A model generated the notes under the pieces. It was not told the DNA's origin, searched no databases, and saw nothing but the letters and a program-made list of their open reading frames with translations. The position numbers and the translations under genes were made by a program. Positions 4,541 through 40,907 of a DNA stretch of 64,000 nt are shown here, one piece after another. Origin of the DNA: Giardia intestinalis (taxonomy: Eukaryota); assembly GCA_000002435.2 (NCBI GenBank), contig CM018791.1. The stretch is one strand, 5' to 3'. Every line of letters begins with the position of its first letter. Positions within the stretch are counted from its first letter, which is position 1.

Positions 4541-4596
4541 GAATCTTAAAATCCTTATTGCAAAGCATTCTAAAAAGAATAATTATAGACAAATTA

Positions 4597-5235
4597 ATGG
4601 ATACTGCAAGAAAATTGCAAGAAAAGGTTGCTGAGCACGAACAAAAAGTCTTGATGATGAGTGGTTTCATGGGGTCTATTAATGCAGGCGATCTCTTCAC
4701 TAATGAGGAGATCGATACCATGGAGCCAAAGATGGCCCGACGCATTGTACGCCACATGTCTGCTTCTAATAAGACAGTCAGGCTTTGGTTCAAGCTGATT
4801 TTTACCGGACTGGAGCTCCTTCTCGCCTCTAATTATATTACTCTTTGCTCTTCTGCTCCAATATTTTCTAATCCCTCGCGCGTAACTCTTAAACTCTTTG
4901 GGGTTCACATACCTTCGTTTTTTATCTCAACAATCCCCTGGTTCACGCTTGCTGCTCAGCTGCTGGTTGCATTCTTTCTCATCTTTAACTCCCACAAACG
5001 CCAGCTGTTCTTCCTCCTCTATTTCACAACCGTCTTCTACGTATTGGCGGGTGTGCCTCTCCTCCTTCTTCATCTTCAAACTGATGAGCACGTCAGTCAA
5101 GTCTTCTTCTACGTCTGTGTCGCCGGGACTGTCATTAGCATACTCACTGAGAGGGCTTCATACAGAGCCGATCAGGGACTCTACGAACTTAAGCGAACAG
5201 TTATGGAAAGCAACAAGACGCGCTCTGAGAAGTGA
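4597..5235 (+). CDS. Hypothetical multi-pass membrane protein.
   Basis: ORF with hydrophobic helices (LWFKLIFTGLELLLAS, WFTLAAQLLVAFFLIF, FFLLYFTTVFYVLAGVPLLLL). The track start at 4558 is a TTG. The first ATG is at 4597 (AATTATAGACAAATTAATG, AT-rich). Confidence 0.4.
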   Translation: MDTARKLQEKVAEHEQKVLMMSGFMGSINAGDLFTNEEIDTMEPKMARRIVRHMSASNKTVRLWFKLIFTGLELLLASNYITLCSSAPIFSNPSRVTLKLFGVHIPSFFISTIPWFTLAAQLLVAFFLIFNSHKRQLFFLLYFTTVFYVLAGVPLLLLHLQTDEHVSQVFFYVCVAGTVISILTERASYRADQGLYELKRTVMESNKTRSEK

Positions 5236-7679: not shown

Positions 7680-8996
7680 TTATGAATAGGAGCATGCAAG
7701 GCAAACGGTGTCATACCCTCCTCCCTTTAGGATTTTTGCACACCCACTACCAAACTGAGCTGCCTGTTTAGGTCGGGCGACCAACTCTGGTGGGACTCCC
7801 AATAGCCAGGCAGCATCCCTTAATATCTTTTTATTTCTGAGATACTCATATCTCTCTGACTCCATCAGATAGTTGAAGAAGGCAGCGACCATCGGCTCTA
7901 GGTACGGGTAAACTACTCGGGAGAATACCCCAGAATCCCTAGTGATATTCCTCTCAAATAGGTTTTGGCAGGCATGCTTGACTGAGAGTTTCCACGTGCA
8001 CGTGTCACCGTCCCGTAATGCTGCATACGCACCGCAATACTCGTCCGGGCCCAATCCGGACATGACAGGAACGTCGATCTCTGACCCATCGGCCCTCCTC
8101 GTCGAGTGAAATAGTATTGATCCTAAGTTTAGCATCATCACAGTTGGCGGGCAGGGGGCTATTAAGTCCCTTACTTGCTGTAGACTGCTTCTAAACTTTA
8201 CTTCAGGGATTGACATGCTCGTGATTTTTATGCGATCCGGACATGACTCGACAATCCTCTGTAGCCGCGGAGAGTCACATAGGGACCTAAATGCAACTGC
8301 ATCCTTAGCAAATTCAAAAAAGTTTATATTAAAAAGTTCTATTCTAGATTGACTTTTTTCTAAAATATGAGTTGCACAAATATATACTAGTAAGGTGGAG
8401 TCGATGCCGCCAGAAGCCAGTATACGGATCTCGGGATGTCTGCTCAGCTGATTAGATATGAGCTCCTTTAGAATTTCTAGGAACTTCATTACAAGGTTAT
8501 CACTGGGCTCAAAGTGCATCTCCATGGCTTGTGATAAGGACGGAACAACTTCAGTAAATGGTATGTACTTTTCTAGCGAAAGGTAGTGCTCAGTGCTCGT
8601 TAACACACTAAAGAATGTGTGCCCTGGAAGGATAAAAGCCAAATCCTTGAGCCCCACACATTTCTCTCGAAGATATATCCCAGATTTATTGTAACAGAGG
8701 ACTACTCTGGAATGATGGTCAGTCATAACTTCTATTCTTTGTTTCTCTCTGTCTAAAATGAGTATAAACATGGAAATACGTTCTACATTATATATAGGTT
8801 CATGACCAGGGCACAGTAGCATCTGCAGAGTCGGACTATCCGGTGCCTGTGCGAAAGTGGATATGCACTCACATCCAGCATAAGGCCCGACTGTAAGTGT
8901 ATGTGTGAATAATGTGAACGAGAGATTGTCAGCAATTTCAACAAGAAACTTTGGCTGAGCTTCCGGCGCGATTGGGGCCGCAAGGGTCACACTCAT
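7680..8996 (-). CDS. PP-loop ATP pyrophosphatase family protein (asparagine-synthase-like C-terminal domain). No glutamine amidotransferase domain is evident.
   Basis: The SGGxDS PP-loop motif is present (ILASGGIDSTLLVY) at about aa 190 of 438. ATG at 8996. Confidence 0.45.
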   Translation of the reverse strand: MSVTLAAPIAPEAQPKFLVEIADNLSFTLFTHTLTVGPYAGCECISTFAQAPDSPTLQMLLCPGHEPIYNVERISMFILILDREKQRIEVMTDHHSRVVLCYNKSGIYLREKCVGLKDLAFILPGHTFFSVLTSTEHYLSLEKYIPFTEVVPSLSQAMEMHFEPSDNLVMKFLEILKELISNQLSRHPEIRILASGGIDSTLLVYICATHILEKSQSRIELFNINFFEFAKDAVAFRSLCDSPRLQRIVESCPDRIKITSMSIPEVKFRSSLQQVRDLIAPCPPTVMMLNLGSILFHSTRRADGSEIDVPVMSGLGPDEYCGAYAALRDGDTCTWKLSVKHACQNLFERNITRDSGVFSRVVYPYLEPMVAAFFNYLMESERYEYLRNKKILRDAAWLLGVPPELVARPKQAAQFGSGCAKILKGGGYDTVCLACSYS

Positions 8997-26226: not shown

Positions 26227-27714
26227 TTAATTTGTGCTTGAGTCTAGGGTAAGAGTTGTTTCTCGCTCTGTCATTTCCAGAGCCGTTACTAGCGTTGTAA
26301 GGGTTGACTGATCAGCAAATGTTTGCCCCATATGGTCAGCTGCTTCATTTTCTTCTTTATCTTTATCCATACTTACATCTTTTGATTCTCTTATGGAGCA
26401 CGGGGGGACCGCAAGTCTTGCAGTCGGCTCTAGACCTGTTGCACTTAAGGAGATTATGCGTGGGGCACTCACTTTAGCCTGGCGTGCAGTAGCTTCAGCT
26501 AGCAGGATATTATCGTCTTCAATGTTAGTAGATTTATCGACATAAATCTCGATATTTGAGTCGTTAGGAATGACCGGAACAAGTACCACATTGCATCCTG
26601 AAAGCCGAATATCAGACAGAACGCTACTGAACTCTATGAGTGTCTGTTCTTCACTCTTTACGGCATCTAAGATCTGTTCTGGTGACAGCAGTGTATATGG
26701 TAAGGAGCGGTTTCCGTAGAACTCTCCTTGTTTTGTGTGCAAGAACATGTCCCAGTTGACTGCAAGACAGTCGTGCTCAAATAGTGTTTCGGCCTGTAGG
26801 CCTAAGAGGAAATTTAAAGCAGCCTCGCCGAATTCTTCGCTACTGTAGTTTGATAACTGGATGTTTTGGCTAACATCTTCAACGCTTTCAACAATCTGAT
26901 TGTCGTCTTTAATCACAAATTGGTCGTCAGAATCTTTGTGTATTGTTTCATGGAAGTACTCTTTAACCAACTGAATATGCTCCTTATATGTGTACCCGGG
27001 CTTAAAGCAAAAGATAGTGAACAAGAGTGCAGTGTTCTCGACACTGTAAAGTCCTTCTAGTCTAAGGTAAAGCAGCCAATTGTACTTAGGAGACCTAGAC
27101 GAAATTCCAAAGGGCTGCAGATTGACAGGCTTCTTGCAAATAAGTCTTGCTAAATTAACTAGAGTGCTGATGAAAATGGTAAGCCGTTTGAGCTTCGTCA
27201 GGGAGCATATGAGAACAGACTTGGATCCCTTACCAGCAGCCATTATCTGCCTGACTAATTGTACAGTCTTCTGTCTGTCTTGAGATAATTCAACATAGGC
27301 ACGCTGGAGCTCAACAAGAGTCTTTAGCTTCGCCGTGTACACTTCTAAATACTCCGAATGAGACGAAAGAATAATGCTTGCATAGTTTCGTTCCAGTGGC
27401 GGTATATCTAAGGCTTTCCAAAGAGGTATGAGCGACCCAAATGGCTTACGTAGCCAAGCTGAAGACTCGGATGGTGACTTCAGTGGGCGCCTTTCACGAT
27501 GAGCTAGGTTTATAGACGAGTATATCTGCCTGTCTACCAGTCTATTAGCTTTGAGGGAGCCTGTGTGTAGTGATACGTTATCGGGAGAAAGCAATCGCGT
27601 CTCTCTTCTACTTCTGCCTCTTCCAAGCACTCTTTCTAGACTGCTGTTTTTTCCTGGAGAGGAAGAAATCCGATATATGTCCTGGTACGAACACCCGGTG
27701 GTGTGGGAAGACAT
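26227..27714 (-). CDS. Member B of the paralogous family (core domain only, no repeats).
   Basis: Motifs WKALDIPPLERNYASIIL, AAGKGSKSVLICSLTKLKRLTIFISTLVNLARLICKKPV, FLLGLQAETLFEHDCLAVNWDMFLH, LPYTLLSPEQILDAV, VVLVPVIP. The track start 27783 is a TTG; the ATG is at 27714 after an AT-rich leader. Confidence 0.6.
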   Translation of the reverse strand: MSSHTTGCSYQDIYRISSSPGKNSSLERVLGRGRSRRETRLLSPDNVSLHTGSLKANRLVDRQIYSSINLAHRERRPLKSPSESSAWLRKPFGSLIPLWKALDIPPLERNYASIILSSHSEYLEVYTAKLKTLVELQRAYVELSQDRQKTVQLVRQIMAAGKGSKSVLICSLTKLKRLTIFISTLVNLARLICKKPVNLQPFGISSRSPKYNWLLYLRLEGLYSVENTALLFTIFCFKPGYTYKEHIQLVKEYFHETIHKDSDDQFVIKDDNQIVESVEDVSQNIQLSNYSSEEFGEAALNFLLGLQAETLFEHDCLAVNWDMFLHTKQGEFYGNRSLPYTLLSPEQILDAVKSEEQTLIEFSSVLSDIRLSGCNVVLVPVIPNDSNIEIYVDKSTNIEDDNILLAEATARQAKVSAPRIISLSATGLEPTARLAVPPCSIRESKDVSMDKDKEENEAADHMGQTFADQSTLTTLVTALEMTERETTLTLDSSTN

Positions 27715-27911
27715 TAAAAAGTTTTTGAGGACAGGTTTTAAAGGATAGTTTGGGCAGTTATAGCTGGAGCTGATGCGTGGCAACCTACCCTTGTCAACCC
27801 TTTCATTACTAAAATGTGTTTGCCATTCTCCATATTATCAATTTTAAAGTATTGATACAATGCGCAGATAAGACCCAAATTCACTTCTGAGTATAGAGGG
27901 GGGTTACGTTG

Positions 27912-30900
27912 TTATCTTCGCTGTTTTCTGCCAGTCACTGGGAGATCCGTTGCTTCGCTTTGCGGCTGCGGATTAGCTGCTTCAGCACACTCTATTTCAC
28001 CGTCCTCATTATAAAACGAGGTTTTCTTGGTATCGCTTTGATAGACACTCTGCTTCTTAACTTGGCGCGGTCCTGTTCTGCGTTGATTGATGGACACAGT
28101 TATAGTGTCGCTTTCAGAAGGAATACAAGCGATGTTTTGGAGCACAGACGATGCTATGCGATTTGTACCTGAATTACTGTTGTCCTTATGGGACGATTCT
28201 TTAGTTCCTACGTGAAGTACTTGTGGGTCATTGCTGCTATTGTAGTGGGGATCAAGTGAGATCTGCTTGTCCCTGCGGACTACTGAAGACGCCAACTGAT
28301 CATTCCATTGACGACTATTAGATCCAACGGATGCACTCCCAGCTGGTCGATCTTTGGAAACCGACGGCTCTTGCCTGGAAGCCACTTTGGCTGCAGAGGC
28401 ATGAATAGCCGACTGTTCACCAGATCGGGCGCTGAAAACATCATCAGGGGCTGTGTGAACACTAATCTGTTCTGGGTCGCGGAATCGCGAGGGGTGATCA
28501 CTTGTAGGTTGATGTGCTTCGCTGAACAATCCCATATCCAGTTTAGATTCGGCTTCCGTTGGAGCAGACGTCCTGTGAGTCGAATAATCTGTGTGATACG
28601 ACGATATTGGACCGATCGTAAGATCTTGTGGCAAAGGATCATTGAGGGCTATTCGATGATTAATTTGTGGAGCAATCGATTCATGTGTAGTCGATGATTC
28701 AATGGAGGGTGTTCTAATAGGTCTATAGGACGTTTCAGAGGCAGGTTCAGAGGATGGCTTCTCTCTTTCCAAGCTTTTGACGCGCGGAGGCAATCGGGCG
28801 TGCTGAACCTTAGCAGGGGAATGATGCTCCTGAGTAGCCACAGCAGTCTTATGCTGTTCAGAGTTTTTGGTCCATGACATGTTTAACTCCTGAACCTGTA
28901 CATCTATCTCTTCCAATTGTAGGCTTCGCTTAGACGAACTACTAGGCTCCTTAGAGAAGTGCTTAATAAGGGAAGCCGGCTCCATTGAGATTGATGGAGA
29001 CCTGGTTTGATGTTGCTGGCTTGGCAATACTGTTGATGAACTAGATAATGCCGTTGAATGTTCTGTCGCCTGTGTGGACGAGTTCAGCTCTACCACAGGG
29101 ATGGAACCTCGTGCAACTGTTGCACTTTGAACGGTAGTGGCAGTGCATGCAAAAAAGTCTTGAGCAACATAAGGGTCAGAGGGATCCATCTTAGATCCCT
29201 CAGTAGGCAGATAAGAACTTGTATCATGAGATACATCATCTGGAGCAGGAGTCTTCTCTAAAGATGCCGCAGGGTTTGCAATACGTTTGGGAGAACAGAG
29301 AGTTCGGGAAGGCATAGTCTCAACGGGTGGGAGGGTAGTTAGAGAAGAAAGAGCTGGCTCAGTGAAGGTAGGCAGGGGAAGCTCTATAGTTGATACAACA
29401 ACTGGGCTGTTAGGAATCAAAATTGTATCAATATTTGTGGTCGTTTCATATAATGCAGCCGAGAACGAATCCTGCCGCTCATGTTTAGAAACATCAATAC
29501 TTCCAGGAATTATTTGAACGATAGATTGCTCTGCAAGGAAGTTGGAAATAAGATCGTCCTTGTGTTGTGGCTGAATGTTAGCAGGAAGGCTGGCATGGTT
29601 TAGTATTAAAGCTGGCTGTTCAAGGCTTGTAGTTATTGATAGATTATTAGTGGAATAGAGCTCGTCGATAATGGATGTTTCCAGTGGCGCTGTAGCCATG
29701 GCCTGCGAGTCCTGATCAGCATACATCTCTTCGATGATAGACTTTGTCACAGATGCGGAACGCAATGGTAGTGTAGGTGCACTGCTATGCATTTGCTGCA
29801 CATAATTGGACAGGCGCGGCCCTTCGGTAAATTGTGCCGGTATTGGGGCTTCCAAGTCTTCTAGTTGCAGACGAGATTCTTCTGCAAGCAGAGAGGAGCG
29901 TTGTGTTGGAAGTGTAGAGGTTGCCACCTCAGCCGTAGCGTTAGGAATTTGCAATGAACTTGAAGCCTGCGAGGAGGCGTGAAATTCGGCGAGGGAACGC
30001 GGAAATCCTTCTAGTTCGCTAGATGCATCCCTTGCATGTGACACCCGCACAGAGGGCAGCGCTTTCACAATTGATTTTTCAAGGGTAGTCGGAATTGTGC
30101 TTATATGGTGGACAAGTCCAGTAACGTCTTCTCCGATGACATCTACGGGAGTGAAGGCACGAGACAAGAGATACTCATTACTGTGTTGCGGAATAGTTGA
30201 ATGAGATCTGGAGATAGAAACGGCCGGAAGGGCTTTAGAGCTAATGGGGCCATCAGCCATGCTCATCTCTTCCAAGATAGAAAGATTGTTTTCGCGTACC
30301 TGACTATAGTTTGAAAATTGAGGTGGCGGGAGGTCTGGGAATACCAAATTGGTGCTGGCACCTGGAACTGTTCCCAGAATAGACGCATTAGCAGCAAACG
30401 GAACTGTTTCAATAAATGTATGTGCTGCTGTACAGTCAGTCATTATGTAAGGAGTGGATGGAGCTGAGCGCCTAGAAATAGACGGCTCCTTGGACCACAC
30501 GGTGGGCTTTGGTTTGCGGATTACAGTTGCTCGATACTCCTTTGTGGGAGGAATCGAAGGACTGGTGACCTGCTTGACCTCATTTGTAACAGAAATAATC
30601 GGCGGTGTCTGTTTGATTAATTCGTTAGCAGAGGTAGACACATGTGGAGCAGGTTGGTGAGGAGCCAGTTCCTTGAGAGTCTGTTCTGGTCGAGGTTGTT
30701 CGCAAGAAGGAGTTCTAGACCTCTTAGAAGAGTGCATAACTAAAGAGTCCGATGGGCTATGGGTTTCCTCATAGGTCTCCTCCGGCTGCTCCGCCAGTAA
30801 GTCGCACGTTTCAAATTCGTCTAGCTGACCTTCGCAACCAGGCTCATCCGGAAAATCTAACGGTTTATGTGCCCGTTTAATCGTGGATCGCGACAGGGTA

Positions 30901-31493
30901 ATAACGTGAGCTGGACTGGCGGGCTGAGGACAGAAACCTTTCGAGGAATCGCTAGATAGTAAACCCGGCTCTCTGGCAGTAGCGAATGTCATAGTGACCT
31001 CTGGAACCATAGTGCTCTGAGCTGAATTTGGTCTGGAGAGCTGAGTAGTAGAAGATACTGCTGGTGTTTCAGAGATGTCCATCAAGCTGCTGAGTACTGT
31101 TGTATGGTCCTGGAGTGGTTTATCAAACGACTTGCTTTCTAAATTAATAGTATTAATAGTTGATGGGTCAGCAAGAAAGTTTCGATGATGTGGATTTTCA
31201 ACCACGTGAGAATCAGCTGCAAATGTCAAAATCATCTGAGTTACAGTTACATCTTCGTCTAGTGTACTTTCAGTAGAGCTTCTTGATTGGACAGAAGAGC
31301 TTTCCTTAGAACCTAAAGTAGTAGAGGATAGAACTTGAGGATGCTCACCAGCGTTTTCCTGGGCAATTGATGAATACTGATCTTGAGAATTTTGTTTAGG
31401 CACTTCATTGGAAGAATGCTTGATTAAAAATGAAGACTCGTGAGTTAAGGGCCTAGATAACGAATTTTCTTCTGCCTTATTTTGTGAATGCAT
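27912..31493 (-). CDS. Giant Ser/Thr/Pro-rich low-complexity ORF (1,224 aa in the track; about 1,193 aa from the first ATG at 31493). Possibly the frameshifted C-terminal continuation of gene 31739..34621 (see findings).
   Basis: Uninterrupted 3.6-kb ORF. The track start 31586 is a TTG. The same frame stays open with no start codon from the repeat array (about 31836) down to 31586. Confidence 0.5.
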   Translation of the reverse strand: MHSQNKAEENSLSRPLTHESSFLIKHSSNEVPKQNSQDQYSSIAQENAGEHPQVLSSTTLGSKESSSVQSRSSTESTLDEDVTVTQMILTFAADSHVVENPHHRNFLADPSTINTINLESKSFDKPLQDHTTVLSSLMDISETPAVSSTTQLSRPNSAQSTMVPEVTMTFATAREPGLLSSDSSKGFCPQPASPAHVITLSRSTIKRAHKPLDFPDEPGCEGQLDEFETCDLLAEQPEETYEETHSPSDSLVMHSSKRSRTPSCEQPRPEQTLKELAPHQPAPHVSTSANELIKQTPPIISVTNEVKQVTSPSIPPTKEYRATVIRKPKPTVWSKEPSISRRSAPSTPYIMTDCTAAHTFIETVPFAANASILGTVPGASTNLVFPDLPPPQFSNYSQVRENNLSILEEMSMADGPISSKALPAVSISRSHSTIPQHSNEYLLSRAFTPVDVIGEDVTGLVHHISTIPTTLEKSIVKALPSVRVSHARDASSELEGFPRSLAEFHASSQASSSLQIPNATAEVATSTLPTQRSSLLAEESRLQLEDLEAPIPAQFTEGPRLSNYVQQMHSSAPTLPLRSASVTKSIIEEMYADQDSQAMATAPLETSIIDELYSTNNLSITTSLEQPALILNHASLPANIQPQHKDDLISNFLAEQSIVQIIPGSIDVSKHERQDSFSAALYETTTNIDTILIPNSPVVVSTIELPLPTFTEPALSSLTTLPPVETMPSRTLCSPKRIANPAASLEKTPAPDDVSHDTSSYLPTEGSKMDPSDPYVAQDFFACTATTVQSATVARGSIPVVELNSSTQATEHSTALSSSSTVLPSQQHQTRSPSISMEPASLIKHFSKEPSSSSKRSLQLEEIDVQVQELNMSWTKNSEQHKTAVATQEHHSPAKVQHARLPPRVKSLEREKPSSEPASETSYRPIRTPSIESSTTHESIAPQINHRIALNDPLPQDLTIGPISSYHTDYSTHRTSAPTEAESKLDMGLFSEAHQPTSDHPSRFRDPEQISVHTAPDDVFSARSGEQSAIHASAAKVASRQEPSVSKDRPAGSASVGSNSRQWNDQLASSVVRRDKQISLDPHYNSSNDPQVLHVGTKESSHKDNSNSGTNRIASSVLQNIACIPSESDTITVSINQRRTGPRQVKKQSVYQSDTKKTSFYNEDGEIECAEAANPQPQSEATDLPVTGRKQRR

Positions 31494-31738
31494 AAAGTTC
31501 TCAATCAAAATATCGTAAGAAGTATCTCCATTACCATAAACATCTGTATTTAGCAAAGTATCCTCACACACCGTGTCTTCTGCCAAGGGCTTCTTTTGGT
31601 TTGTTCTCGATGCATCGGTAGGTTTTAATTTCCGTAAAGGTGGAAGGGATGATAAGGAATACGTTAGAACAAGCTCACTAACAGGTACATCTTCATTATC
31701 ACAAGCTGGAGTAAGTACTCCCTCATGTATATCGTTAA

Positions 31739-34621
31739 CTACAAGAAGGTCTTCGACGGGCTCCGCGGGCTCTGCAAGGCGTGCCTCCTCGGGCTCCTCA
31801 ACGGGCGCTTCAGGTTCTTCGACGGGCTCCGCGGGTCTGCAAGGCGTGCCTCCTCGGGCTCCTCAACGGGCGCTTCAGGTTCTTCGACGGGCTCCGCGGG
31901 GTCTGCAAGGCGTGCCTCCTCGGGCTCCTCAACGGGCGCTTCAGGTTCTTCGACGGGCTCCGCGGGCTCTGCAAGGCGTGCCTCCTCGGGCTCCTCAACG
32001 GGCGCTTCAGGTTCTTCGACGGGCTCCGCGGGGTCTGCAAGGCGTGCCTCCTCGGGCTCCTCAACGGGCGCTTCAGGTTCTTCGACGGGCGCCTCTTGCT
32101 GCTCGGGCTGTTTCTTTGCAGGAAGAGAAGAGTAACTCTTACTAGCAGTAAGCTGCTGTAAACCAACAGACTCAGGTTCCTTTCTACTTCGAGATTGTAA
32201 TAGCGGGGTCCCATCTGGTCGAGTAAAATCTGTTAGAGGAGTACTACATGGTTCGTCCAAGATGTCTTCGCGAATCCTAGATAAAAGGATGATATTATCA
32301 CAGACGTGCTCGTCGTCAACTTCATATACTTGAAAGTGTTTGGCTGTACTAGAATCCTCATAGTCTGTAGAGTCTAGACAGGCGTATCGCCCAGTACTAC
32401 TACTTCGTACTTGTGAAGTAGTGATCCTATCAAAATGACTAGAAGTGATCACCACACATGGAATGTATTCATCGTTGATATTAACTTGACTCTCAGGATG
32501 CTCGTTGTGTAGTAGATCAATTTCCCTTAGCAAGGATCCACCTGTCGAAAGAATATTTCTGGGTGAAGATATAGTTACAATAGTTGCGCTCATTACATCG
32601 TCTCGAGAGGCGATTTCCGTGGCAGTTGACGGCGGAAGCAACGTACACTCACTTATTTTGGGAATAAGGGCAGTAGCAGGAGAAATAATATTTAGATCTT
32701 TAGCATTGGTCGAGGAGCTTGGGGGCTGCGCAGTAAACTCAGCATATGGGTCCTCTGATGGTATGTCCAAACCTCCACTACTAGCTGCAAATGAAGGACC
32801 AACCACTTCTGGTTCAATAATATCTGGATCCTCATGATAACTTTGTTCATCATAGGTGCTTAAATTCTGAGTTGATGATATGGATGAGTGAGCTAGTGCT
32901 TGCATCTCTAGCGACTCCTCGTCCTTTGGAGGAGAAAGATTAACTATGGGAGCATCTTCGCGTAGATCATTGCCATCCATCTCAATAGTTGGTAGATCGG
33001 CTATCACTTCAGGTTGCGATGCAATCACAGCGGGAGATATTGACCCCGATGGCTCAAGCTGCACCTCGTGCTCATCAGGTTGTGGAAGTATAATATCCAG
33101 CGACGCCTTTAATGGTGGTAGAATAGTGGGCGCGCCTGATGAACCACTTAACGGTCTACTAGAGACATGAGTTGAAAGATGCTCATTAGATGCAAAATTC
33201 GCCTGTTCAGATTGACAAGCTTCGTTAGATACAGATGCATCTAAAGAAGAACGGTGGTCATCATCGGTAGAGCGTTCAATGTGAGCAATAGCAGAAGACT
33301 GTCTATGAGGAACAACACTTTCATCATCACCATCCGTTAGACGTCGTAGCAAGACTATTTTATTTGACCCTTCATCCTCCTGCGTAAAGATCCTGTCATA
33401 AACATCCAACGTATCCGAAGCTGAGAGCGGAGGAACAGCAACAATCCCACAATCACTTTTGTTTGCCTGCCTCATAAGATCGGTTAATTGGTTAATGGTT
33501 GTTCGCTCGACTGCAAATGCTGTGAACACTTCCTCTGGAGTCAGCTCCAGACAAGGAAGAGGAGCCTTGCCCATAGATGGCCCCCGCACCTGCTCTAAGT
33601 GTTCTACCCATCGCACCCCTAAATCATCTCCCTCAAAAGCAAACGTCATTGGAGGAGCAACCCCCAGTAGAAGAGCCAAGGATGCAAAATCATTGATAGG
33701 CGAGGCTGTGTCTACACCAGGGAGCATAACACATGCAGCTGGGGTATGAATGTTGTCATTTTGGTTTGAAAATTCTTCGTCTTTGACGCTATCCCACATA
33801 CCGTAGAAGGAAGATAACAGGGCTTTATGGTCAGATAAAGCTTGACTCTTGCTATACTTTAAAACAGTAAACATAACTGCAAAATCGACTTGATTGAAAC
33901 CTCTTTTCTTCATCCTCACGATGTAGTTTGGAGACTTCTGGGAAAATCCTGTTCTGAGAGGATTAAATGAAACTGGCTTTTCACAGATTACTCGTGATGC
34001 ATTGACGACAGAAACTATGGAAATTATAGATGACCGAAGAAGGAGGAGATCGTTTGCAAGGGACTTCCTGCTCCCCTTTCCTCCTTTCAAAGCGCTTTCA
34101 ATATTGCCAAAGGCGCTCTCATATTCCTGAATGCTTGTCAGGTATGCTTCTCTGAGATCTAAAAGAGCTTTTAACTTATTTATGTAGGTGGGGATCTCAG
34201 CCCTGTTTGCATCCAGTCGCTCATAAGCAAGATTGCGCTCTTCAATGCATACATCGAGGCTGTCCCACAGTGGTATAATATCTGTAAGAATATTCTTAGC
34301 CGTCTCAGTACGTCGCAACGGTGCTGGATTGTATGTGCGCGCAGTCTTGTAAGAAACGTCTTTTCTCGGCTTGTGCATTTGTTTTCTTGAGAGATCCGCG
34401 CTCATAAGCAAAGGATTTGCTTGCAAGTAGGGACTCTTGTAGGTGAACTTAGTGCCAGTCTGGGCAGACATGGCAGATGTATTAGTGACCAGACGCCCGC
34501 CAGAGGTAGGTCCACTATCACGACGAGACGTTCTCATTGCGTCAGTTTTTGGTGTGGATGATCGTAACACTGCCTGAGGTCTTGATCGGCCTCCAGTCCT
34601 CATAGATGAATCCGGAAACAT
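31739..34621 (-). CDS. Member C of the paralogous family, with C-terminal 22-aa acidic repeats (EPEAPVEEPEEARLADPAEPVE). The reading frame is disrupted inside the repeat array.
   Basis: Motifs WDSLDVCIEERNLAYERL, LKGGKGSRKSLANDLLLLRSSIISIVSVVNASRVICEKPV, LLLGVAPPMTFAFEGDDLGVRWVEHLE, VAVPPL. The track start 34702 is a GTG. Candidate ATGs are at 34621 and 34603. The tail ...ADPRSPSKNLKRPLRSPRRHALQSPRSPSKTFL* is the repeat read in the wrong frame after a 1-bp deletion. Confidence 0.6.
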   Translation of the reverse strand: MFPDSSMRTGGRSRPQAVLRSSTPKTDAMRTSRRDSGPTSGGRLVTNTSAMSAQTGTKFTYKSPYLQANPLLMSADLSRKQMHKPRKDVSYKTARTYNPAPLRRTETAKNILTDIIPLWDSLDVCIEERNLAYERLDANRAEIPTYINKLKALLDLREAYLTSIQEYESAFGNIESALKGGKGSRKSLANDLLLLRSSIISIVSVVNASRVICEKPVSFNPLRTGFSQKSPNYIVRMKKRGFNQVDFAVMFTVLKYSKSQALSDHKALLSSFYGMWDSVKDEEFSNQNDNIHTPAACVMLPGVDTASPINDFASLALLLGVAPPMTFAFEGDDLGVRWVEHLEQVRGPSMGKAPLPCLELTPEEVFTAFAVERTTINQLTDLMRQANKSDCGIVAVPPLSASDTLDVYDRIFTQEDEGSNKIVLLRRLTDGDDESVVPHRQSSAIAHIERSTDDDHRSSLDASVSNEACQSEQANFASNEHLSTHVSSRPLSGSSGAPTILPPLKASLDIILPQPDEHEVQLEPSGSISPAVIASQPEVIADLPTIEMDGNDLREDAPIVNLSPPKDEESLEMQALAHSSISSTQNLSTYDEQSYHEDPDIIEPEVVGPSFAASSGGLDIPSEDPYAEFTAQPPSSSTNAKDLNIISPATALIPKISECTLLPPSTATEIASRDDVMSATIVTISSPRNILSTGGSLLREIDLLHNEHPESQVNINDEYIPCVVITSSHFDRITTSQVRSSSTGRYACLDSTDYEDSSTAKHFQVYEVDDEHVCDNIILLSRIREDILDEPCSTPLTDFTRPDGTPLLQSRSRKEPESVGLQQLTASKSYSSLPAKKQPEQQEAPVEEPEAPVEEPEEARLADPAEPVEEPEAPVEEPEEARLAEPAEPVEEPEAPVEEPEEARLADPAEPVEEPEAPVEEPEEARLADPRSPSKNLKRPLRSPRRHALQSPRSPSKTFL
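31751..32079. repeat. Tandem repeat, 66 bp x 5 copies, inside CDS 31739..34621. Copy 2 (31817..31881) is 65 bp because it has GGGT instead of GGGGT/GGGCT.
   Basis: Unit CTTCGACGGGCTCCGCGGG[G/C]TCTGCAAGGCGTGCCTCCTCGGGCTCCTCAACGGGCGCTTCAGGTT. Copies at 31751, 31817, 31882, 31948 and 32014. Confidence 0.95.
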
Positions 34622-36525
34622 TTGGTCCGCGATTTTTAAAATCCGGTTATAAATACGCCGACTGTCTTGGGAGCTTAAAGGAGGTCCAAAGGCTGCGTTC
34701 ACTCACATCCGTCTCTCCTGCTTCAGGCTTGAGTTCACATTCTCTGCGACAAAACATGGCTACTCCTTCTCCTATTCGTAAGCATTCACAAAAGCAGGAA
34801 GAACGCCACGCCTTTTGGCGTTCACTTCTGCTAAAGTGTCCTGTGTTTGTTCCTGTTCAAGGGTCGACACACAAACTGCAAAAGATCACCGCTTACAGTA
34901 TCTCCAAGCATGTGAATCGTACACGAGCAAACAGTCAATTAAACCCAGTTAGAACCCCTCCCCTTTCCAGGTCATTAACCAAAGCTGTCCCTGGATCACT
35001 TCAAAATACCCGAACGCCGCGTGGCTCTGCTGTCAGCTCAACCATCCGGAACACACCTCCCATAAGAAAACCCGGCCTCACCACGTCTGTTCTTTCTAAT
35101 GACTCACTACTCTCACCATCCGGCACTACATCATTTGCAGTCTTCAAGCACCTCCCTAAGGGCTCTATAAATGGAAGTCTCTCTACGAGAAAGTCAACTG
35201 CAGAGCTGACTCTCTCAGAATGGACCCATCTCGAAGAAATGCAGACAGACTTAGGGCTTTGCGAGGCGGAAATTGCGTATTCAAAAGTTACGATCAAAAA
35301 CAACCCGGCATTGGGTAAAGCATACTTCCGTAGAACAAAAAACCTTACTGAGTACAATTCTGCGTATCGAATAGCATATAAGGAGCGTGCAATCGTCTTA
35401 GCTCGTGTCCAGAAAAATATAAAAGAGCTTCGTGGTTCACGCATCGCTCTGCTACGTTCTCTTGAGCGGCTTCGCGCTCTGACTATCTACATGTGCTCAT
35501 TGATTAATGCTGCTCGCTTGATCTGTGGGAAACCAGTAGTTCTGCCAGGGCTCAATTTATACAGTGAGCAAAACTGGCTCTATGACCTACGGCGTGAGCT
35601 CTTTATGAGCAGGAAAACCACCGCGATACTGCTTACGGTGTTCAAGCTCTTTGGTAGAAAAACATATGAGGATGTGCGCTCTGTTGTTGATGCGTATTTT
35701 ACATCGTGTATTACCGATTTTCCCCCTACTCTGTCACTGTCCGAGCAAGAGCTAAGCCGAACGCTTGGCATGCCACCTAATGAAGATGCTTCACTTAAGA
35801 GCACTATGTCAGCTTCTAGCGCCCCTGCGATCAACGGTAAGACAGCTAGTGATGATGGATCGTCGCAACCTACTCTTGAGGCAGCGTACATTCCCGACGA
35901 TAGCATGAATAACATGGGCTATTTCTCCAGAATGGACGGGCTATCTATGACCGATACCATCTATGATGAAGATGCAGATCTTGACAGAGTTACTGCGGGA
36001 GACGTGGCTCTCTACCTTTTGTTGGGTGTTAGCGCAGAAGAAATCTTCGACGGAGATGATTTGGCAGTGGCATGGAATACTCATATAGATAAAATCATAA
36101 ATACATATCAACGCCTATCAAATGTGGAATTAGAGGAGGTCCCGTCATTACAGGACCTGCCAATTGTAGACATTCCCTTGTTGACAGGGCTCCAAATTGT
36201 GGAGATGGCTCGAACAGAAACTTTTATTGTGTCTGATTACATAAACCTCCTCAAGGACTTCGATAACGTTGGCTTGGACGTTGTCAGAATACCAGTTGAT
36301 CCATCCGACCCCTTTGAGACGTATAGAGTTAACTTTGATCTATCTCTACTACGCGACAGTGCAGATCTAGCAGCATTTGAGTTAGATGGAAAATGTATTG
36401 GGTGCTCTTCTCTGTCCTCGAAAACTGCTCCTAGTTGCCCCGATGAAACAGCACATAGACCCAATAATTCTTCTCGCTCATCTGTATTTTCATTAACCAA
36501 GAGCATCTCAGTGGAGGAGAATTGA
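34606..36525 (+). CDS. Member D of the paralogous family. It is divergently oriented and its 5' end abuts or overlaps member C.
   Basis: Motifs KELRGSRIALLRSLERLRALTIYMCSLINAARLICGKPVVLPG, EQNWLYDLRRELFMSRKTTAILLTVFKLF, YLLLGVSAEEIFDGDDLAVAWNTHID, VVRIPVDP. ATG at 34606; an alternative ATG is at 34756 (MATPSPIRK). Confidence 0.6.
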   Translation: MNPETFGPRFLKSGYKYADCLGSLKEVQRLRSLTSVSPASGLSSHSLRQNMATPSPIRKHSQKQEERHAFWRSLLLKCPVFVPVQGSTHKLQKITAYSISKHVNRTRANSQLNPVRTPPLSRSLTKAVPGSLQNTRTPRGSAVSSTIRNTPPIRKPGLTTSVLSNDSLLSPSGTTSFAVFKHLPKGSINGSLSTRKSTAELTLSEWTHLEEMQTDLGLCEAEIAYSKVTIKNNPALGKAYFRRTKNLTEYNSAYRIAYKERAIVLARVQKNIKELRGSRIALLRSLERLRALTIYMCSLINAARLICGKPVVLPGLNLYSEQNWLYDLRRELFMSRKTTAILLTVFKLFGRKTYEDVRSVVDAYFTSCITDFPPTLSLSEQELSRTLGMPPNEDASLKSTMSASSAPAINGKTASDDGSSQPTLEAAYIPDDSMNNMGYFSRMDGLSMTDTIYDEDADLDRVTAGDVALYLLLGVSAEEIFDGDDLAVAWNTHIDKIINTYQRLSNVELEEVPSLQDLPIVDIPLLTGLQIVEMARTETFIVSDYINLLKDFDNVGLDVVRIPVDPSDPFETYRVNFDLSLLRDSADLAAFELDGKCIGCSSLSSKTAPSCPDETAHRPNNSSRSSVFSLTKSISVEEN

Positions 36526-36582
36526 CCCCTCTTTTCTGAGAGCCGCGGAAATTTAAAAAGCTTCGTCCTTTGCTTTTACCCC

Positions 36583-37104
36583 ATGTCGCTTTCGCCCATC
36601 AGCATGAAGACAAGCCATTGGCAATATAGGAGGCCCACAAAGCAGCACATGAGCTGGGACTACTTTGAGTTGCTGAATCTTTACCGCGCAATAACTTTCG
36701 CAGGACTGAGTTACCTCAGCGGTGACGGTTTGCCAGAGGATGACTTGGTGATTGAGCAGTTTTATACTCTGAAAAAGGACTATATAAAGAAGTTTGAGCC
36801 TCTGGCCGTTTATCAAATGTATAGGGCACAAGTTCAGCGTACTCTGTTGCTAGGGGTAAATCATGATTGGATGACCTCCTTGCTGAGCATAGTTTTCCGG
36901 CTGTTGCGCGCAGAGGCGTGTATTCCTCATGAGAAGATAATGGCAGTCATAAATAACTTAACAAACCACGTCCACGAATACATCAAGGAAAATGCAGAAC
37001 ACAGGATATCTGGCTTTCTTGAGCGGTGGTCCCTTTCTAATAATGTTTTGCCTTCTCGCTGTCCGTCGGCCCACTTCAAACGCACCACAAGGGAACGAAT
37101 TTAA
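36583..37104 (+). CDS. Hypothetical protein (173 aa).
   Basis: ORF with an ATG at 36583, 57 bp after the stop of member D. No recognisable domain. Confidence 0.4.
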   Translation: MSLSPISMKTSHWQYRRPTKQHMSWDYFELLNLYRAITFAGLSYLSGDGLPEDDLVIEQFYTLKKDYIKKFEPLAVYQMYRAQVQRTLLLGVNHDWMTSLLSIVFRLLRAEACIPHEKIMAVINNLTNHVHEYIKENAEHRISGFLERWSLSNNVLPSRCPSAHFKRTTRERI

Positions 37105-37109
37105 TAAAT

Positions 37110-38312
37110 ATGCCTTCTATTATTGACGCGAAGTCTTTTATAGAGGCACCCTCAAGGCATGGCCGTGCCTCTCCGCTCGATGCTGATCCTTGGGAAGATC
37201 TACCGACTATGAAGGTGGCCGTCGGAGCTGCACAACTGGTGTTACAAAAGTGCGGGGAGAGCAGTATGTTCTTGAACATGCACTACTCAACGAGCGTTAC
37301 TTCCCGCAAGATTGCAATCAGGACATCTCCCTTTTTAAACGAAAAGCGTGTCAGCCGAGGGGCTTTAGCTGGAGACCAAGGAATCCCTAGTCATGTCAAG
37401 CCCGCTGTTTCTGTTATATTACTTGTCTCTTCCGCGTGCGCTAAAGCAGCCTCAGAGATTAGGAAGCAGATTTATGAGAGGTTCTATTGTAAGGAGGCCC
37501 AGCATCCAATCACTGATCCCGGAGATGACTTCAATGTCGTCCTCATAATCACAAGAAAACATCTAGAAGCCATGTTTAACAAGCACACAGGCTCGTTTGT
37601 GCGCACGTACTATTACGATAAACTTACAGAACTGCGCCGTGGTACGCGGCTCATGTGCTTAATGGACATTAGATTGCAGAAAGACCCTGTTGAGGGTAAA
37701 GTAATGACAACGCTGATGCAAGCTTTCACTGCTCCGCCATATGTTTTGGACATTAACTGCAAGGATTTTACTTTTAAGGTCATCGCGGGCTGCTTGGGCC
37801 ATGATCTATGGCTCTACCCGTGGAGAGAGGCCTCTCTCAATTCTACCGAAATTTCCTTGATGAACTCCCATGCACGAACAGAGTACTTGCACATCCGTGA
37901 CTTCATCACAACCTATGACGCCCGAAAGGCACGGACAGCAGCTGTGGACTCAGATGGTAACTGCTATCTCTTAGAAAGTAGGAAAGTCCTTCCATCTGAG
38001 TTTTCCATAACCATGCTGCATTTGAGTGGCGGGAAAGTGGAGAATTGTTTCGTTGGATCCACAAAAGAGCCACCCGATATGATAGCAAAGCGCATTTTCC
38101 TAGTTGGGAAAGTCCTTAGACTGGCATGTCCTGATCTTACGGTCTCTGCTTTTACTGTAGGGGGGATTTCTGCTCCACAAGTGCCTCTCTCGCAAGAGGG
38201 GCTGGGGTCATTGAGAACCTCCACTTTAGAGCTACCTAAATTGGATGGGCGGACGCACCCTATGAGTTCTAGAGATACCAAGCACAACAAAAGAAGTAAA
38301 GTGAAACTTTGA
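37110..38312 (+). CDS. Hypothetical protein (400 aa).
   Basis: ATG at 37110, only 5 bp after the upstream TAA. The leader GAATTTAATAAATATG is AT-rich. No recognisable domain. Confidence 0.45.
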   Translation: MPSIIDAKSFIEAPSRHGRASPLDADPWEDLPTMKVAVGAAQLVLQKCGESSMFLNMHYSTSVTSRKIAIRTSPFLNEKRVSRGALAGDQGIPSHVKPAVSVILLVSSACAKAASEIRKQIYERFYCKEAQHPITDPGDDFNVVLIITRKHLEAMFNKHTGSFVRTYYYDKLTELRRGTRLMCLMDIRLQKDPVEGKVMTTLMQAFTAPPYVLDINCKDFTFKVIAGCLGHDLWLYPWREASLNSTEISLMNSHARTEYLHIRDFITTYDARKARTAAVDSDGNCYLLESRKVLPSEFSITMLHLSGGKVENCFVGSTKEPPDMIAKRIFLVGKVLRLACPDLTVSAFTVGGISAPQVPLSQEGLGSLRTSTLELPKLDGRTHPMSSRDTKHNKRSKVKL

Positions 38313-38477
38313 ATGTGTTTGTGCATTTTATGCGTAACGACTCGACCTGGTACTGAGGTGGAATACAGAGTCGAATTCTCGGATACACAACTTTGTTCTA
38401 GTTATGTTCTGGTTGCCTTGGTATCTCTACAGCTGGTAAGACACATACAGATTGATTTTAAAAAGTCCAAAATTCCG

Positions 38478-40907
38478 ATGGATCTTTCTGTTAAGCAACG
38501 CCTGAAGCTCTGCAAGGCAGAATTCGATGCTTGCTTTAGGCAGCTGCAATATGATAAGGCGTTACGCGCCATATGTCATGCAATAGAGATTACTCCAGAT
38601 GATGTAAGCTTATATCTTAATAGAGCACAGTGTTACACCCAAATGGGCTTAACCCAAAAGGCCACCGAAGATGCACTCTATGTAATTGCAGCAGAACCAA
38701 ACGATCACAGAGGATACCGCAGTAGAGCAGACGCACTCCTTTATCAGGGTGAATTTGAATTTTCACTCATTGACTATTATCATTGTATTGAAATGCGGCC
38801 TGATCTGGTAGACCACGAGACGGGCGTCAAGCGTTGCGAAGATGCAGTGAAAAAGGCAATTTTATATGATGACAAAGATATAGAACTCATTCTAGAACTG
38901 TTGGAGCTTGGGGTAATTGTTGAGGGCACCGTCTCTCATTCTTCGACTAAGGGGTTTTCCTTATGGACCCCGCCAGAACTTCCTGAAGAAGAGGATGTCG
39001 AGGGTTCACAATCTCTTGGCAATTTTCTGGCTCCATTAACCGACGAGAACCTTTCGAAAGATCTGCGGATACAGCAAAAACGCAAACCCGTAGACAACAT
39101 TATAGTGCAAAGGCCTAAAACAACTCGACCGAAGAGCAGCCGTCTGCCCTTCTTTGATTTAGGAGCAGATAAGGACTTTCTTCGCGAATTACAATCGTTT
39201 CCGTTAGTCAAGGATCTTGCCGCGATGGGTACTGAATACATTGACCAACGAGAGCAATACTGGGGTCAATTGGCCAAGAAGGGGTATAGCTCCGATCACA
39301 ACTCGCGCCGGCCTAACTCTGTCAAAGCACGGCCAAAGAAGGAATCAATTCCAACCTCATCTGAGCGCTCTCACTCAGCAAAAGTGCCTGATACACTTTC
39401 ATACAATCGGCGAAGACTCTTGGAAGCGACAAAGTCCGGATCTAACATCAAGAAATTAGTCCCCTACACCTCTAAAGCGGTCGAAATGGCGCATGGTTCC
39501 CCTGCTGCTTCTCCAAAGCGATCACGTAGTCCAGTGGCGAGTCAGGCACCTGAGTCATCATCAGGGGCGTCAGGATTACATTCACAGATTGCTGCAGCTG
39601 TTGCCATGAGTGCACGACTCCAAATGCTCCAGAATGCTCAGGGCCTTTCATTGGAAGAAGCGCCTCCCACAGATACCCGTGTCTCAGACTCTATTTCAAA
39701 CACAGATACCGATCAGTGTTTGTTTGACGAGCATATCGTACGAGCAGGAGCACACATTAAGCAGCGGAGTTCGTCTGAATCTACAAGGTCGACTTTAGAC
39801 ACAAAACCCCCCATCGATCCATATCTTCAGGTGACAAAGAAGGTTAACAAAAACACTCACCTCATGCATAATACGCCCAACCACAGACCTTCTACCTCTA
39901 AGGCCGCATCTGTAACGAAAAAGCCTTCGTCTGCATCGCGTCCACCCAAAACACGGAATAGAACAATAGAGCTGTCTGTTACCGACAAGCGTGATTACAT
40001 TGGAGGAGTCGCTGGATTGGCTGCAGAAACACGGTCTAGCAGCATCCGGTCCCAGGCCTTTTCAAGGTACATCCTCAACACCGTGACTGCCGAGGCCCTT
40101 GCCAGCAAGCGCTCAAAGGTCAACCCGGTGACCTTGGCCCAGGAGGCCCGTACCTTAGAGACTTGGATAGACGGAAAGCAGAGAGATGTCCTTGATGCGG
40201 TTCAAAACGGGCTTCTCTGCGACTCTATCAAGCTCTGTAAAGAGGTTTTGGAGCGTATATGCAAGGGAGACCGGGTGTCGAAGGCTCTTCAAGATCTTCC
40301 ACGTCGAAAAGCACAGTTTTACCTTTATATCGGGTGTACCTATTTTCTCTTAGACCAACGTCAGACTGACCACTCGCGGTCATGCCTTGCGAGTTTAAAG
40401 AACGCAGTCGACTATGCCAATCTGACGAAGGATTCGGTTCTGATACTGCAGTCTGTTCGTGAGCTTTCCAAGGCCATGCTTAATATGGGACAGGCCTTCA
40501 AGGCGATCGTGCCTCTTAAGAGCATTCTGCGACATTTTGAAGACATTCCACTGCTGGAGGCAGATACACTACTGTGCATTGGGAGGGCATACCATGACGG
40601 GGGTGACTATCTGAATGGGCTCACATACACCCACGAAGCTCTCGCTATCTATCAACGCCTCTACGTTAATGAAGACGAGCTCCCGATAGATTTTCCTGGC
40701 AAGCGGTGCAAGTATACTGTCTTCACAGAGCTGTCTCCGCGTCACAACTACTGCTTCTGCCTCTGTCTCATCGGCCGGTGCCACTTAGCCCAAAATGACA
40801 AAGCCCTAGCAAAGCAGTATCTTGAGCATTGCAAGAGCCTCGGAAAATTATGGAAAGACAGCACGGCATGGCACACGGCCACGGAGCTGCTCAGATTCAT
40901 TTATTAG
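38478..40907 (+). CDS. TPR-repeat protein.
   Basis: N-terminal TPR-like helices (AICHAIEITPDDVSLYLNRAQCYTQMGLTQKATEDALYVIAAEPNDHRGYRSRADALLYQGEFEFSLIDYYHCIEMRPD) and further TPR-like units at the C-terminus. The track start 38313 is an ATG directly after the upstream TGA. A strongly AT-rich initiator (GATTTTAAAAAGTCCAAAATTCCGATG) favours a start at 38478. Confidence 0.6.
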   Translation: MDLSVKQRLKLCKAEFDACFRQLQYDKALRAICHAIEITPDDVSLYLNRAQCYTQMGLTQKATEDALYVIAAEPNDHRGYRSRADALLYQGEFEFSLIDYYHCIEMRPDLVDHETGVKRCEDAVKKAILYDDKDIELILELLELGVIVEGTVSHSSTKGFSLWTPPELPEEEDVEGSQSLGNFLAPLTDENLSKDLRIQQKRKPVDNIIVQRPKTTRPKSSRLPFFDLGADKDFLRELQSFPLVKDLAAMGTEYIDQREQYWGQLAKKGYSSDHNSRRPNSVKARPKKESIPTSSERSHSAKVPDTLSYNRRRLLEATKSGSNIKKLVPYTSKAVEMAHGSPAASPKRSRSPVASQAPESSSGASGLHSQIAAAVAMSARLQMLQNAQGLSLEEAPPTDTRVSDSISNTDTDQCLFDEHIVRAGAHIKQRSSSESTRSTLDTKPPIDPYLQVTKKVNKNTHLMHNTPNHRPSTSKAASVTKKPSSASRPPKTRNRTIELSVTDKRDYIGGVAGLAAETRSSSIRSQAFSRYILNTVTAEALASKRSKVNPVTLAQEARTLETWIDGKQRDVLDAVQNGLLCDSIKLCKEVLERICKGDRVSKALQDLPRRKAQFYLYIGCTYFLLDQRQTDHSRSCLASLKNAVDYANLTKDSVLILQSVRELSKAMLNMGQAFKAIVPLKSILRHFEDIPLLEADTLLCIGRAYHDGGDYLNGLTYTHEALAIYQRLYVNEDELPIDFPGKRCKYTVFTELSPRHNYCFCLCLIGRCHLAQNDKALAKQYLEHCKSLGKLWKDSTAWHTATELLRFIY

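Follow-up and report, generated by a model that had tools for sequence, protein, structure and literature searches.

Separate coding sequences and a candidate shared initiator in a conserved divergent pair of Giardia paralogues

In a 64,000-nucleotide stretch of the Giardia intestinalis WB genome (contig CM018791.1; hereafter the window), two genes that we call C, on the minus strand, and D, on the plus strand (GL50803_0016289), face away from each other, and an initial annotation of the sequence had proposed that their start codons abut or overlap. Comparison with orthologous loci instead indicates that C and D are paralogues in a conserved head-to-head arrangement and that their coding sequences (CDSs) neither touch nor overlap, as conservation among orthologues, together with existing annotation, puts the start codons at 34621 for C and 34756 for D and leaves 134 base pairs (bp) between the two CDSs. 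We consider it highly probable that C is translated from 34621 by way of its initiator and D from 34756, most likely by way of the same shared region, with the CDSs separated by this interval. The initial annotation had itself named this outcome, C at 34621 and D at 34756 without overlap, as the one that would tell against its proposal; we reach it through orthologues and annotation rather than through transcription start site (TSS) data, and the comparison of N-termini among orthologues that it recommended proved decisive.

Four ATGs compete for the two start codons. Those of C have their first bases at 34621 and 34603 on the minus strand, 18 nucleotides (nt) apart and in the same frame; those of D lie at 34606 and 34756 on the plus strand, 150 nt apart and likewise in one frame, and positions 34601-34608 read CAT-AG-ATG. 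All four coordinates, their frames and this junction proved correct as first described. The frame of D is closed upstream by a TAG at 34603 and that of C by a TGA at 34703-34705, and the open reading frames (ORFs) extend over 31739-34702 (minus) for C and 34606-36525 (plus) for D. The paralogy of C and D also held (BLASTP E = 1e-12, 24% identity over 217 amino acids (aa)), and the two proteins share a second conserved block, LLLGV...F.GDDL.V.W. Orthologous loci were fetched through homologues of D and comprised P15 (assemblage E; locus L001), DH (assemblage A2; L007), three more distant G. duodenalis lineages (L002, L003 and L004, with 79, 77 and 74% protein identity), which we describe only by their distance from WB, and G. 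muris (L005). C orthologues were read from these same loci, as a protein database search for homologues of the C N-terminus gave only one fragment, of 296 aa; exact look-up of C in the protein collection returned neither the 960-aa model from 34621, nor the model from 34603, nor a frameshift-corrected model of 2,236 aa. The head-to-head arrangement is kept in every locus fetched, including G. muris, where the C counterpart is a minus-strand ORF of >1,300 aa that shares the core and the acidic repeats and starts 95-113 bp from D.

The start of C is marked by its conservation. In a DNA alignment the CAT at 34619-34621 is invariant among WB, DH, P15 and the three more distant G. duodenalis lineages, and in the G. 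muris orthologue an ATG, and hence a methionine, aligns with 34621. The CAT at 34601-34603, by comparison, is restricted to assemblages A and E, the codon specifying Ser, Ser and Leu in the other three lineages. The predicted N-termini accordingly read MFPDSSMRTGGRSRPQ in WB, DH and P15 and MFQDPSSRTGG, MFPDPSSRTGG and MFPDPSLRTGA in the others. With Met1 conserved and Met7 not, the predicted start of C is 34621.

For D, the translation from 34756 (589 aa) is identical to KAE8302724.1 / XP_037901789.1, a hypothetical protein of G. intestinalis WB C6, and the WB reference annotation already places the start at this ATG. The P15 orthologue, GLP15_2009 (590 aa), begins at the equivalent methionine, and the P15 annotation starts the C orthologue at the equivalent of 34621, 135 bp from D. 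Patterns of substitution agree with these models. Counted by first, second and third codon position in four comparisons with WB, substitutions fall at 0/1/8, 6/5/35, 9/5/24 and 9/5/33 in C and at 2/0/6, 2/1/15, 4/0/15 and 4/3/20 in D from 34756 onwards, whereas positions 34622-34728 are flat (7/9/4, 13/14/14, 17/18/14 and 17/21/15); the bias towards third positions sets in at 34756. Identity is 39-73% in 34658-34728, compared with 77-96% in the flanking coding sequence.

The 50 codons between 34606 and 34756 behave differently from both genes. The distance from the C ATG to the conserved D sequence ACTCCTTCTCC is 141 nt in WB and DH, 142 in P15, 142 in L002, 133 in L003 and 132 in L004, and the spacer indels are not multiples of three; P15, L002 and L003, with indels of +1, +1 and -8 nt, have an in-frame stop between the 34606 ATG and the conserved D sequence, and in L002 the 34606 codon is ACG. 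The frame is open in WB and DH, and in L004 it happens to be open across the spacer with residues unrelated to those of WB. The flat codon-position pattern, the frameshifting indels and the low identity together show that the 50-codon extension is non-coding. The ATG at 34606 looks like a start because the 134-nt spacer has no stop in the D frame in assemblage A, and such openness is unremarkable: 10% of shuffles of the 134-nt intergenic stretch keep the D frame 34606-34755 open, and 23% of all 150-nt frames in the window are stop-free, which places the arrangement highlighted by the initial annotation within what chance produces. By this comparison the plus-strand ATG 34606 is a chance ATG antisense to codons 5-6 of C. 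Across the apparent overlap, the C segment is conserved and the D segment 34606-34755 is not conserved as coding sequence, being broken by stops and frameshifting indels in L002, L003 and P15, the last being the closest relative, and the plus strand upstream of 34606, which is the GC-richer coding sequence of C, holds no initiator-like sequence. As the extension is neither conserved as coding sequence nor preceded by a promoter, a genuine overlap of CDSs lacks both of the features that would define it. The suggestion that the two transcripts overlap as antisense 5' ends within the CDSs is not supported either, since it needs a TSS for D upstream of 34606.

The alignment also points to turnover of the D start codon. 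The codon equivalent to 34729 is ATG in L002, L003 and L004, where it opens the D ORF (M-S/N-S-...), TTG in WB and DH, and ATA in P15; the codon equivalent to 34756 is ATG in assemblages A and E and ATT or GTT in L002-L004. (The turnover lies at 34729-34758 of the window, with equivalent positions at 2645 in L002, 2535 in L003, 2666-2669 in L004 and 6001 in L001.) The D start codon moved 27 nt downstream in the A/E lineage. The simplest history would be one in which the A/E ancestor gained the ATG at 34756 while the upstream ATG was still present, and the upstream ATG was then lost twice, because TTG in assemblage A and ATA in assemblage E are different single changes from ATG. An ancestral ATG at the equivalent of 34729 further implies that ancestral transcription started upstream of 34729.

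Transcription of C can be related to a well-described element. In WB, TSS sequencing gave a consensus for initiation that is 11 nt long, AT-rich and centred on an A (Tolba et al., 2013; PMC3792122), and earlier initiator motifs cited there are AATTAAAAA (Holberton & Marshall) and ATTTTAAAAT (Yee et al.). Between the two genes, positions 34632-34642 read ATTTTTAAAAT on the plus strand and ATTTTAAAAAT on the minus strand, a nearly palindromic sequence whose minus-strand reading, an 11-mer of A and T only, exactly matches the TSS variant that ranks second in frequency in Table 3 of PMC3792122. Scored with a weight matrix made from that published table (maximum 16.8 bits), the minus-strand reading reaches 16.2 bits and the plus-strand reading 9.4. 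Only four sites in the 64-kb window score at least 15 bits on either strand, and three of these four precede the first ATG of a long ORF by 16-28 nt (C, a 173-aa gene at 36583 and an 809-aa start at 38478). The central A of the C element, at 34637, precedes the ATG at 34621 by 16 nt, and that ATG is the first after the initiator on the minus strand. The element scores 16.2 bits in P15 and L002, 15.6 in L003 and 11.8-12.4 in L004, and lies 16-26 nt from the C ATG. Transcription of C is predicted to start in ATTTTAAAAAT (34642 to 34632, minus) with a leader of about 16 nt, typical for Giardia. The initial annotation had described both upstream regions as less AT-rich than a Giardia initiator, which for C starting at 34621 was mistaken, as a perfect AT-only 11-nt match lies 10-20 nt upstream.

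How D is transcribed is less certain, and here we favour the shared initiator region over a separate, non-consensus TSS. In the mechanism that we propose, C would be transcribed from the 34632-34642 initiator with its leader of about 16 nt and translated from 34621, and D would be transcribed, most likely, from the same near-palindrome on the other strand or from the adjacent AT-rich TTATAAATA. This would leave D with an unusually long leader, about 104-119 nt and free of ATGs, followed by translation from the first AUG, that of 34756. Several observations fit this proposal. In WB, no initiator-like site other than 34632-34642 exceeds 3 bits on either strand between 34560 and 34800, and the matrix scan finds no further match above 3 bits on the plus strand of 34643-34756; the single-site pattern recurs in P15, L002 and L003, and L004 adds a weak plus-strand site (6.1 bits, 36 nt upstream of D). 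TTATAAATA is identical in WB, P15 and L002. ATG 34756 is the first plus-strand ATG after the initiator, and none of the five G. duodenalis lineages has a plus-strand ATG in the intergenic region, where 1.1-2.0 would be expected; CAT occurs there 1-3 times per lineage. In Giardia, moreover, a single symmetrical initiator lying between neighbouring genes has been documented to drive transcription both ways (PMC3792122; PMC1885649).

Other observations weigh against sharing. The initiator-to-ATG distance of D, 119 nt, is the largest among the long ORFs of the window, for which 7-33 nt is typical, and the plus-strand reading of the element scores just 9.4 bits; initiator symmetry, in any case, does not predict bidirectionality (Tolba et al.; PMC3792122). 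The argument from the ATG-free spacer is weak, as the probability of finding none is 0.12-0.30 per lineage and the lineages are related, and it is partly circular, as an in-frame ATG would have been called the start. As 565 of 8,000 transcription regions lack the consensus (PMC3792122), an unrecognised D TSS close to the ATG is possible. D of G. muris has its own initiator, AAGATAAAAATG, abutting its ATG, so a shared promoter is not an ancestral necessity. Gene 16289 is not listed in the supplements of PMC3792122, PMC3610916 and PMC9014877, where TSS or untranslated-region data were sought, and a full-text literature search for GL50803_16289 returned no papers. Weighing these points, we advance tentatively, at a little below even chances, the full proposal that a single initiator at 34632-34642, together with TTATAAATA, drives both paralogues and that the ATG-free leader of D, 104-119 nt long, has been maintained across G. 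duodenalis assemblages despite the 27-nt shift of its start. The compact bidirectional promoter suggested by the initial annotation thus survives in part: one conserved near-palindromic initiator, with TTATAAATA beside it, does lie between the genes, away from the CAT-AG-ATG junction, and its use by D is what the sequence leads us to propose.

The main competitor, which we rate as less probable though well worth entertaining, gives D a non-consensus TSS of its own near the ATG, at about 34690-34750, and so supposes two unidirectional core promoters with the same start codons. Giardia 5' leaders are mostly <40 nt, consensus-free transcription regions exist in the number just given, and much apparently bidirectional transcription has been argued to represent two nearby unidirectional initiators (PMC3792122); the window's other divergent pair contains two separate AT-rich elements, the G. 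muris D initiator sits at its ATG, and the weak L004 match lies close to D. Yet in WB the stretch 34643-34756 has no plus-strand initiator-like match above the 3-bit threshold, no block outside the coding sequence is conserved near the D start in a spacer of 39-73% identity, plus-strand ATGs are absent from the spacer in all five lineages, and the ancestral ATG at the equivalent of 34729 requires a TSS upstream of it. We therefore retain the shared region as the favoured source of the D transcript.

A further clue comes from a public assembly. The Logan contig SRR10368393_4142 (L006) consists of 17 nt of Illumina adapter (GTGTGCTCTTCCGATCT, L006 1-17) fused to window positions 34652-37996, with the junction inside TTATAAATA. 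Were the run RNA sequencing, an end at 34652 would fit the end of a D transcript, but this is a weak hint; adapter-ended contigs also occur inside D, and the retrieval was biased to contigs starting at 34607-34755, both of which tell against reading this end as a proxy for a TSS. The other 24 public contigs are genomic and end in the C repeat, and L010 spans the region. Logan contigs that end in contaminating adapter can give rise to false protein termini, and the product of another contig, P0015, ends in translated adapter (KIGRAHV). Rfam gave no match in the spacer, and the putative D leader folds no better than shuffled sequence (z = +1.0).

Two remaining alternatives concern the start codons themselves. 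That D of assemblage A is translated from 34606, with a lineage-specific 50-aa extension and with the 5' end of its mRNA and its first codons antisense to those of C, strikes us as highly improbable. The frame from 34606 is open in WB and DH, antisense transcription is abundant in Giardia (PMC1885649), and prokaryote-style gene calls on public assemblies reproduce the abutting model, in which two bases separate C from D; the GenBank annotation of DH (A2), which carries D as DHA2_152514 at 639 aa, is a point against our assignment, this protein and unnamed gene calls on public assemblies being the only matches to the 639-aa translation. Against such a start stand the stops in P15, L002 and L003, the unrelated sequence in L004, the non-coding substitution pattern and indels that are not multiples of three, an upstream plus strand without an initiator-like element, the use of 34756 in the WB reference annotation, and an open frame that arises by chance in about 10% of shuffles. 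We conclude that the 589-aa WB reference model of D is right and that the 639-aa DH model and the prokaryote-style calls are over-extended. Translation of C from ATG 34603 (Met7), which would make the CAT-AG-ATG junction an edge of the C CDS, deserves equally little credence, for although this in-frame ATG exists in assemblages A and E and was picked by gene callers on some assemblies, Met7 is replaced by Ser, Ser or Leu elsewhere while Met1 is invariant and aligned with a G. muris methionine, coding conservation covers residues 1-6 of C (MFPD[SP]S), and the initiator 16 nt 5' of 34621 would make that codon the first AUG of the predicted mRNA. The features of the locus are collected in Table 1.

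Table 1. Start codons, coding sequences and candidate control elements of the C/D locus, in coordinates of the window.
Feature	Position	Strand	Remarks
Gene C, open frame in the window, 960 aa	31739..34621	minus	Third-position substitution bias
C Met7, internal in-frame ATG, not the predicted start	34601..34603	minus	Restricted to assemblages A and E
Chance in-frame ATG, antisense to C codons 5-6, not the predicted D start	34606..34608	plus	Followed by in-frame stops and indels in P15, L002 and L003
Predicted C start codon, first base of ATG at 34621	34619..34621	minus	Invariant; first ATG after the initiator
C-D intergenic region, 134 bp; plus strand = probable D 5' leader	34622..34755	unstranded	
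Near-palindromic AT-rich initiator; predicted C TSS, candidate D TSS	34632..34642	both readings	
Second AT-rich element, TTATAAATA; may be TATA-like or an alternative D initiator	34647..34655	unstranded	
Putative relic of the ancestral D start, TTG in WB	34729..34731	plus	ATG in L002, L003 and L004
D start codon in assemblages A and E	34756..34758	plus	Annotation and orthologues
D coding sequence, 589 aa and stop	34756..36525	plus	

Initiator-like sequences elsewhere in the window bear on neighbouring genes. The best match, AATTTAAAAAG (16.8 bits, 36550-36560, plus), lies 28 nt upstream of the ATG at 36583 and supports the 173-aa model at 36583, as in P15, over the 151-aa calls on several public assemblies. 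An initiator at 38455-38465 (16.4 bits) lies 18 nt upstream of ATG 38478, an internal ATG of a second over-extended ORF (38313-40907, plus; 864 aa) that gives a product of 809 aa, the length of the P15 orthologue. Two strong matches at 8311-8336 (plus), AATTCAAAAAA (13.0 bits) and ATATTAAAAAG (15.5 bits), are followed by an ORF of only 7 codons and may represent a sterile transcript, the promoter of a non-coding RNA or an unannotated gene start. The window's other head-to-head pair, at 4538-4599, with ATGs at 4540 (minus) and 4597 (plus), a spacer of only 56 bp and a separate AT-rich element beside each ATG, has the more usual Giardia layout and contrasts in this with C and D.

C and D are two of four paralogues of one protein family that lie within 35 kb (1871-4540, 26227-27783 and 31739-34621, all minus, and 34756-36525, plus). 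Acidic tandem repeats are present at the C-terminus of two of them, 1871-4540 and C. The family shares a core of about 300 aa with the motifs GKGSR/ELRGSR...N.AR.IC.KPV and LLLG...F.GDDL..W, and its alignments contain invariant columns. The C/D family is restricted to Giardia: 1.84 billion clustered proteins include only 25 representatives of it (E <= 1e-3). It has no Pfam match, no sequence match in the PDB and no Foldseek hit with E < 4; in an AlphaFold model (mean predicted local distance difference test score 48.9) only a helical core, at about residues 150-260, and a small unit at the N-terminus are modelled with confidence. In the window, C is split within 31750-32095 by one C missing from a CCCC run at about 31833-31836. 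The run belongs to a 66-bp acidic tandem repeat (PVEEPEAPVEEPEEARLADPAE), in its fifth copy, and the split leaves ORFs at 31739-34621 and 27912-31586 (both minus), and restoring the base yields a single ORF of 2,236 aa. The P15 orthologue of C is continuous at 2,207 aa, and in G. muris, too, the ORF continues across its repeats. C is ancestrally the 5' part of a gene of about 2,200 aa, continuing to about 27912. Either the gene is truly truncated in WB or the split stems from a homopolymer or assembly error.

The practical value of these findings is that the apparent overlap of start codons can be set aside as an artefact of choosing the longest ORF, with the 589-aa model of GL50803_0016289 as the right one, and that a matrix built from a published TSS consensus, combined with alignment across assemblages, settles start codons without expression data. 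The case is an ordinary annotation ambiguity of a known kind, already resolved in the WB reference annotation. If the initiator is indeed shared, the 134-bp interval would be a convenient test case for the two-way firing of Giardia initiators and would offer a clean natural case of a conserved and truly shared bidirectional core promoter, through which two ancient paralogues are possibly co-regulated, from an organism in which bidirectional promoters are disputed. It would further exemplify a long ATG-free leader. All this would be of modest interest, and to specialists in Giardia transcription only.

The locus combines three known things: the AT-rich initiator, its possible bidirectional use and the over-extension of longest-ORF models. 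In keeping with the published Giardia initiator, the element is an exact listed variant; it lies 16 nt from the first ATG of C, as other strong matches in the window lie close to theirs, and is conserved across assemblages. For D it differs, as it would lie 118-119 nt from the ATG, far beyond the usual distance of at most about 40 nt. Like the bidirectional Giardia promoters described by Teodorovic et al. (2007; PMC1885649) and Tolba et al. (2013), it would serve a head-to-head pair through a single near-palindromic AT-rich element, with no second initiator-like element for D; in contrast to them it is asymmetric, scoring 16.2 bits towards C and 9.4 towards D, and we propose two-way firing from sequence and arrangement. 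Over-extended longest-ORF models are familiar from Giardia annotation, 536 transcription regions lying within the first 100 nt of annotated ORFs, where translation starts from the second ATG or later (PMC3792122), and the 639-aa D model likewise reaches an upstream in-frame ATG through a stop-free spacer; here, the extension crosses the whole intergenic region into a divergent neighbour and so creates starts that appear to abut. Finally, the shift from 34729 to 34756 resembles start-codon turnover among close lineages, in which one AUG is lost, a downstream AUG is gained and the N-terminus is shortened, and differs in affecting just nine poorly conserved residues, with no functional consequence evident.

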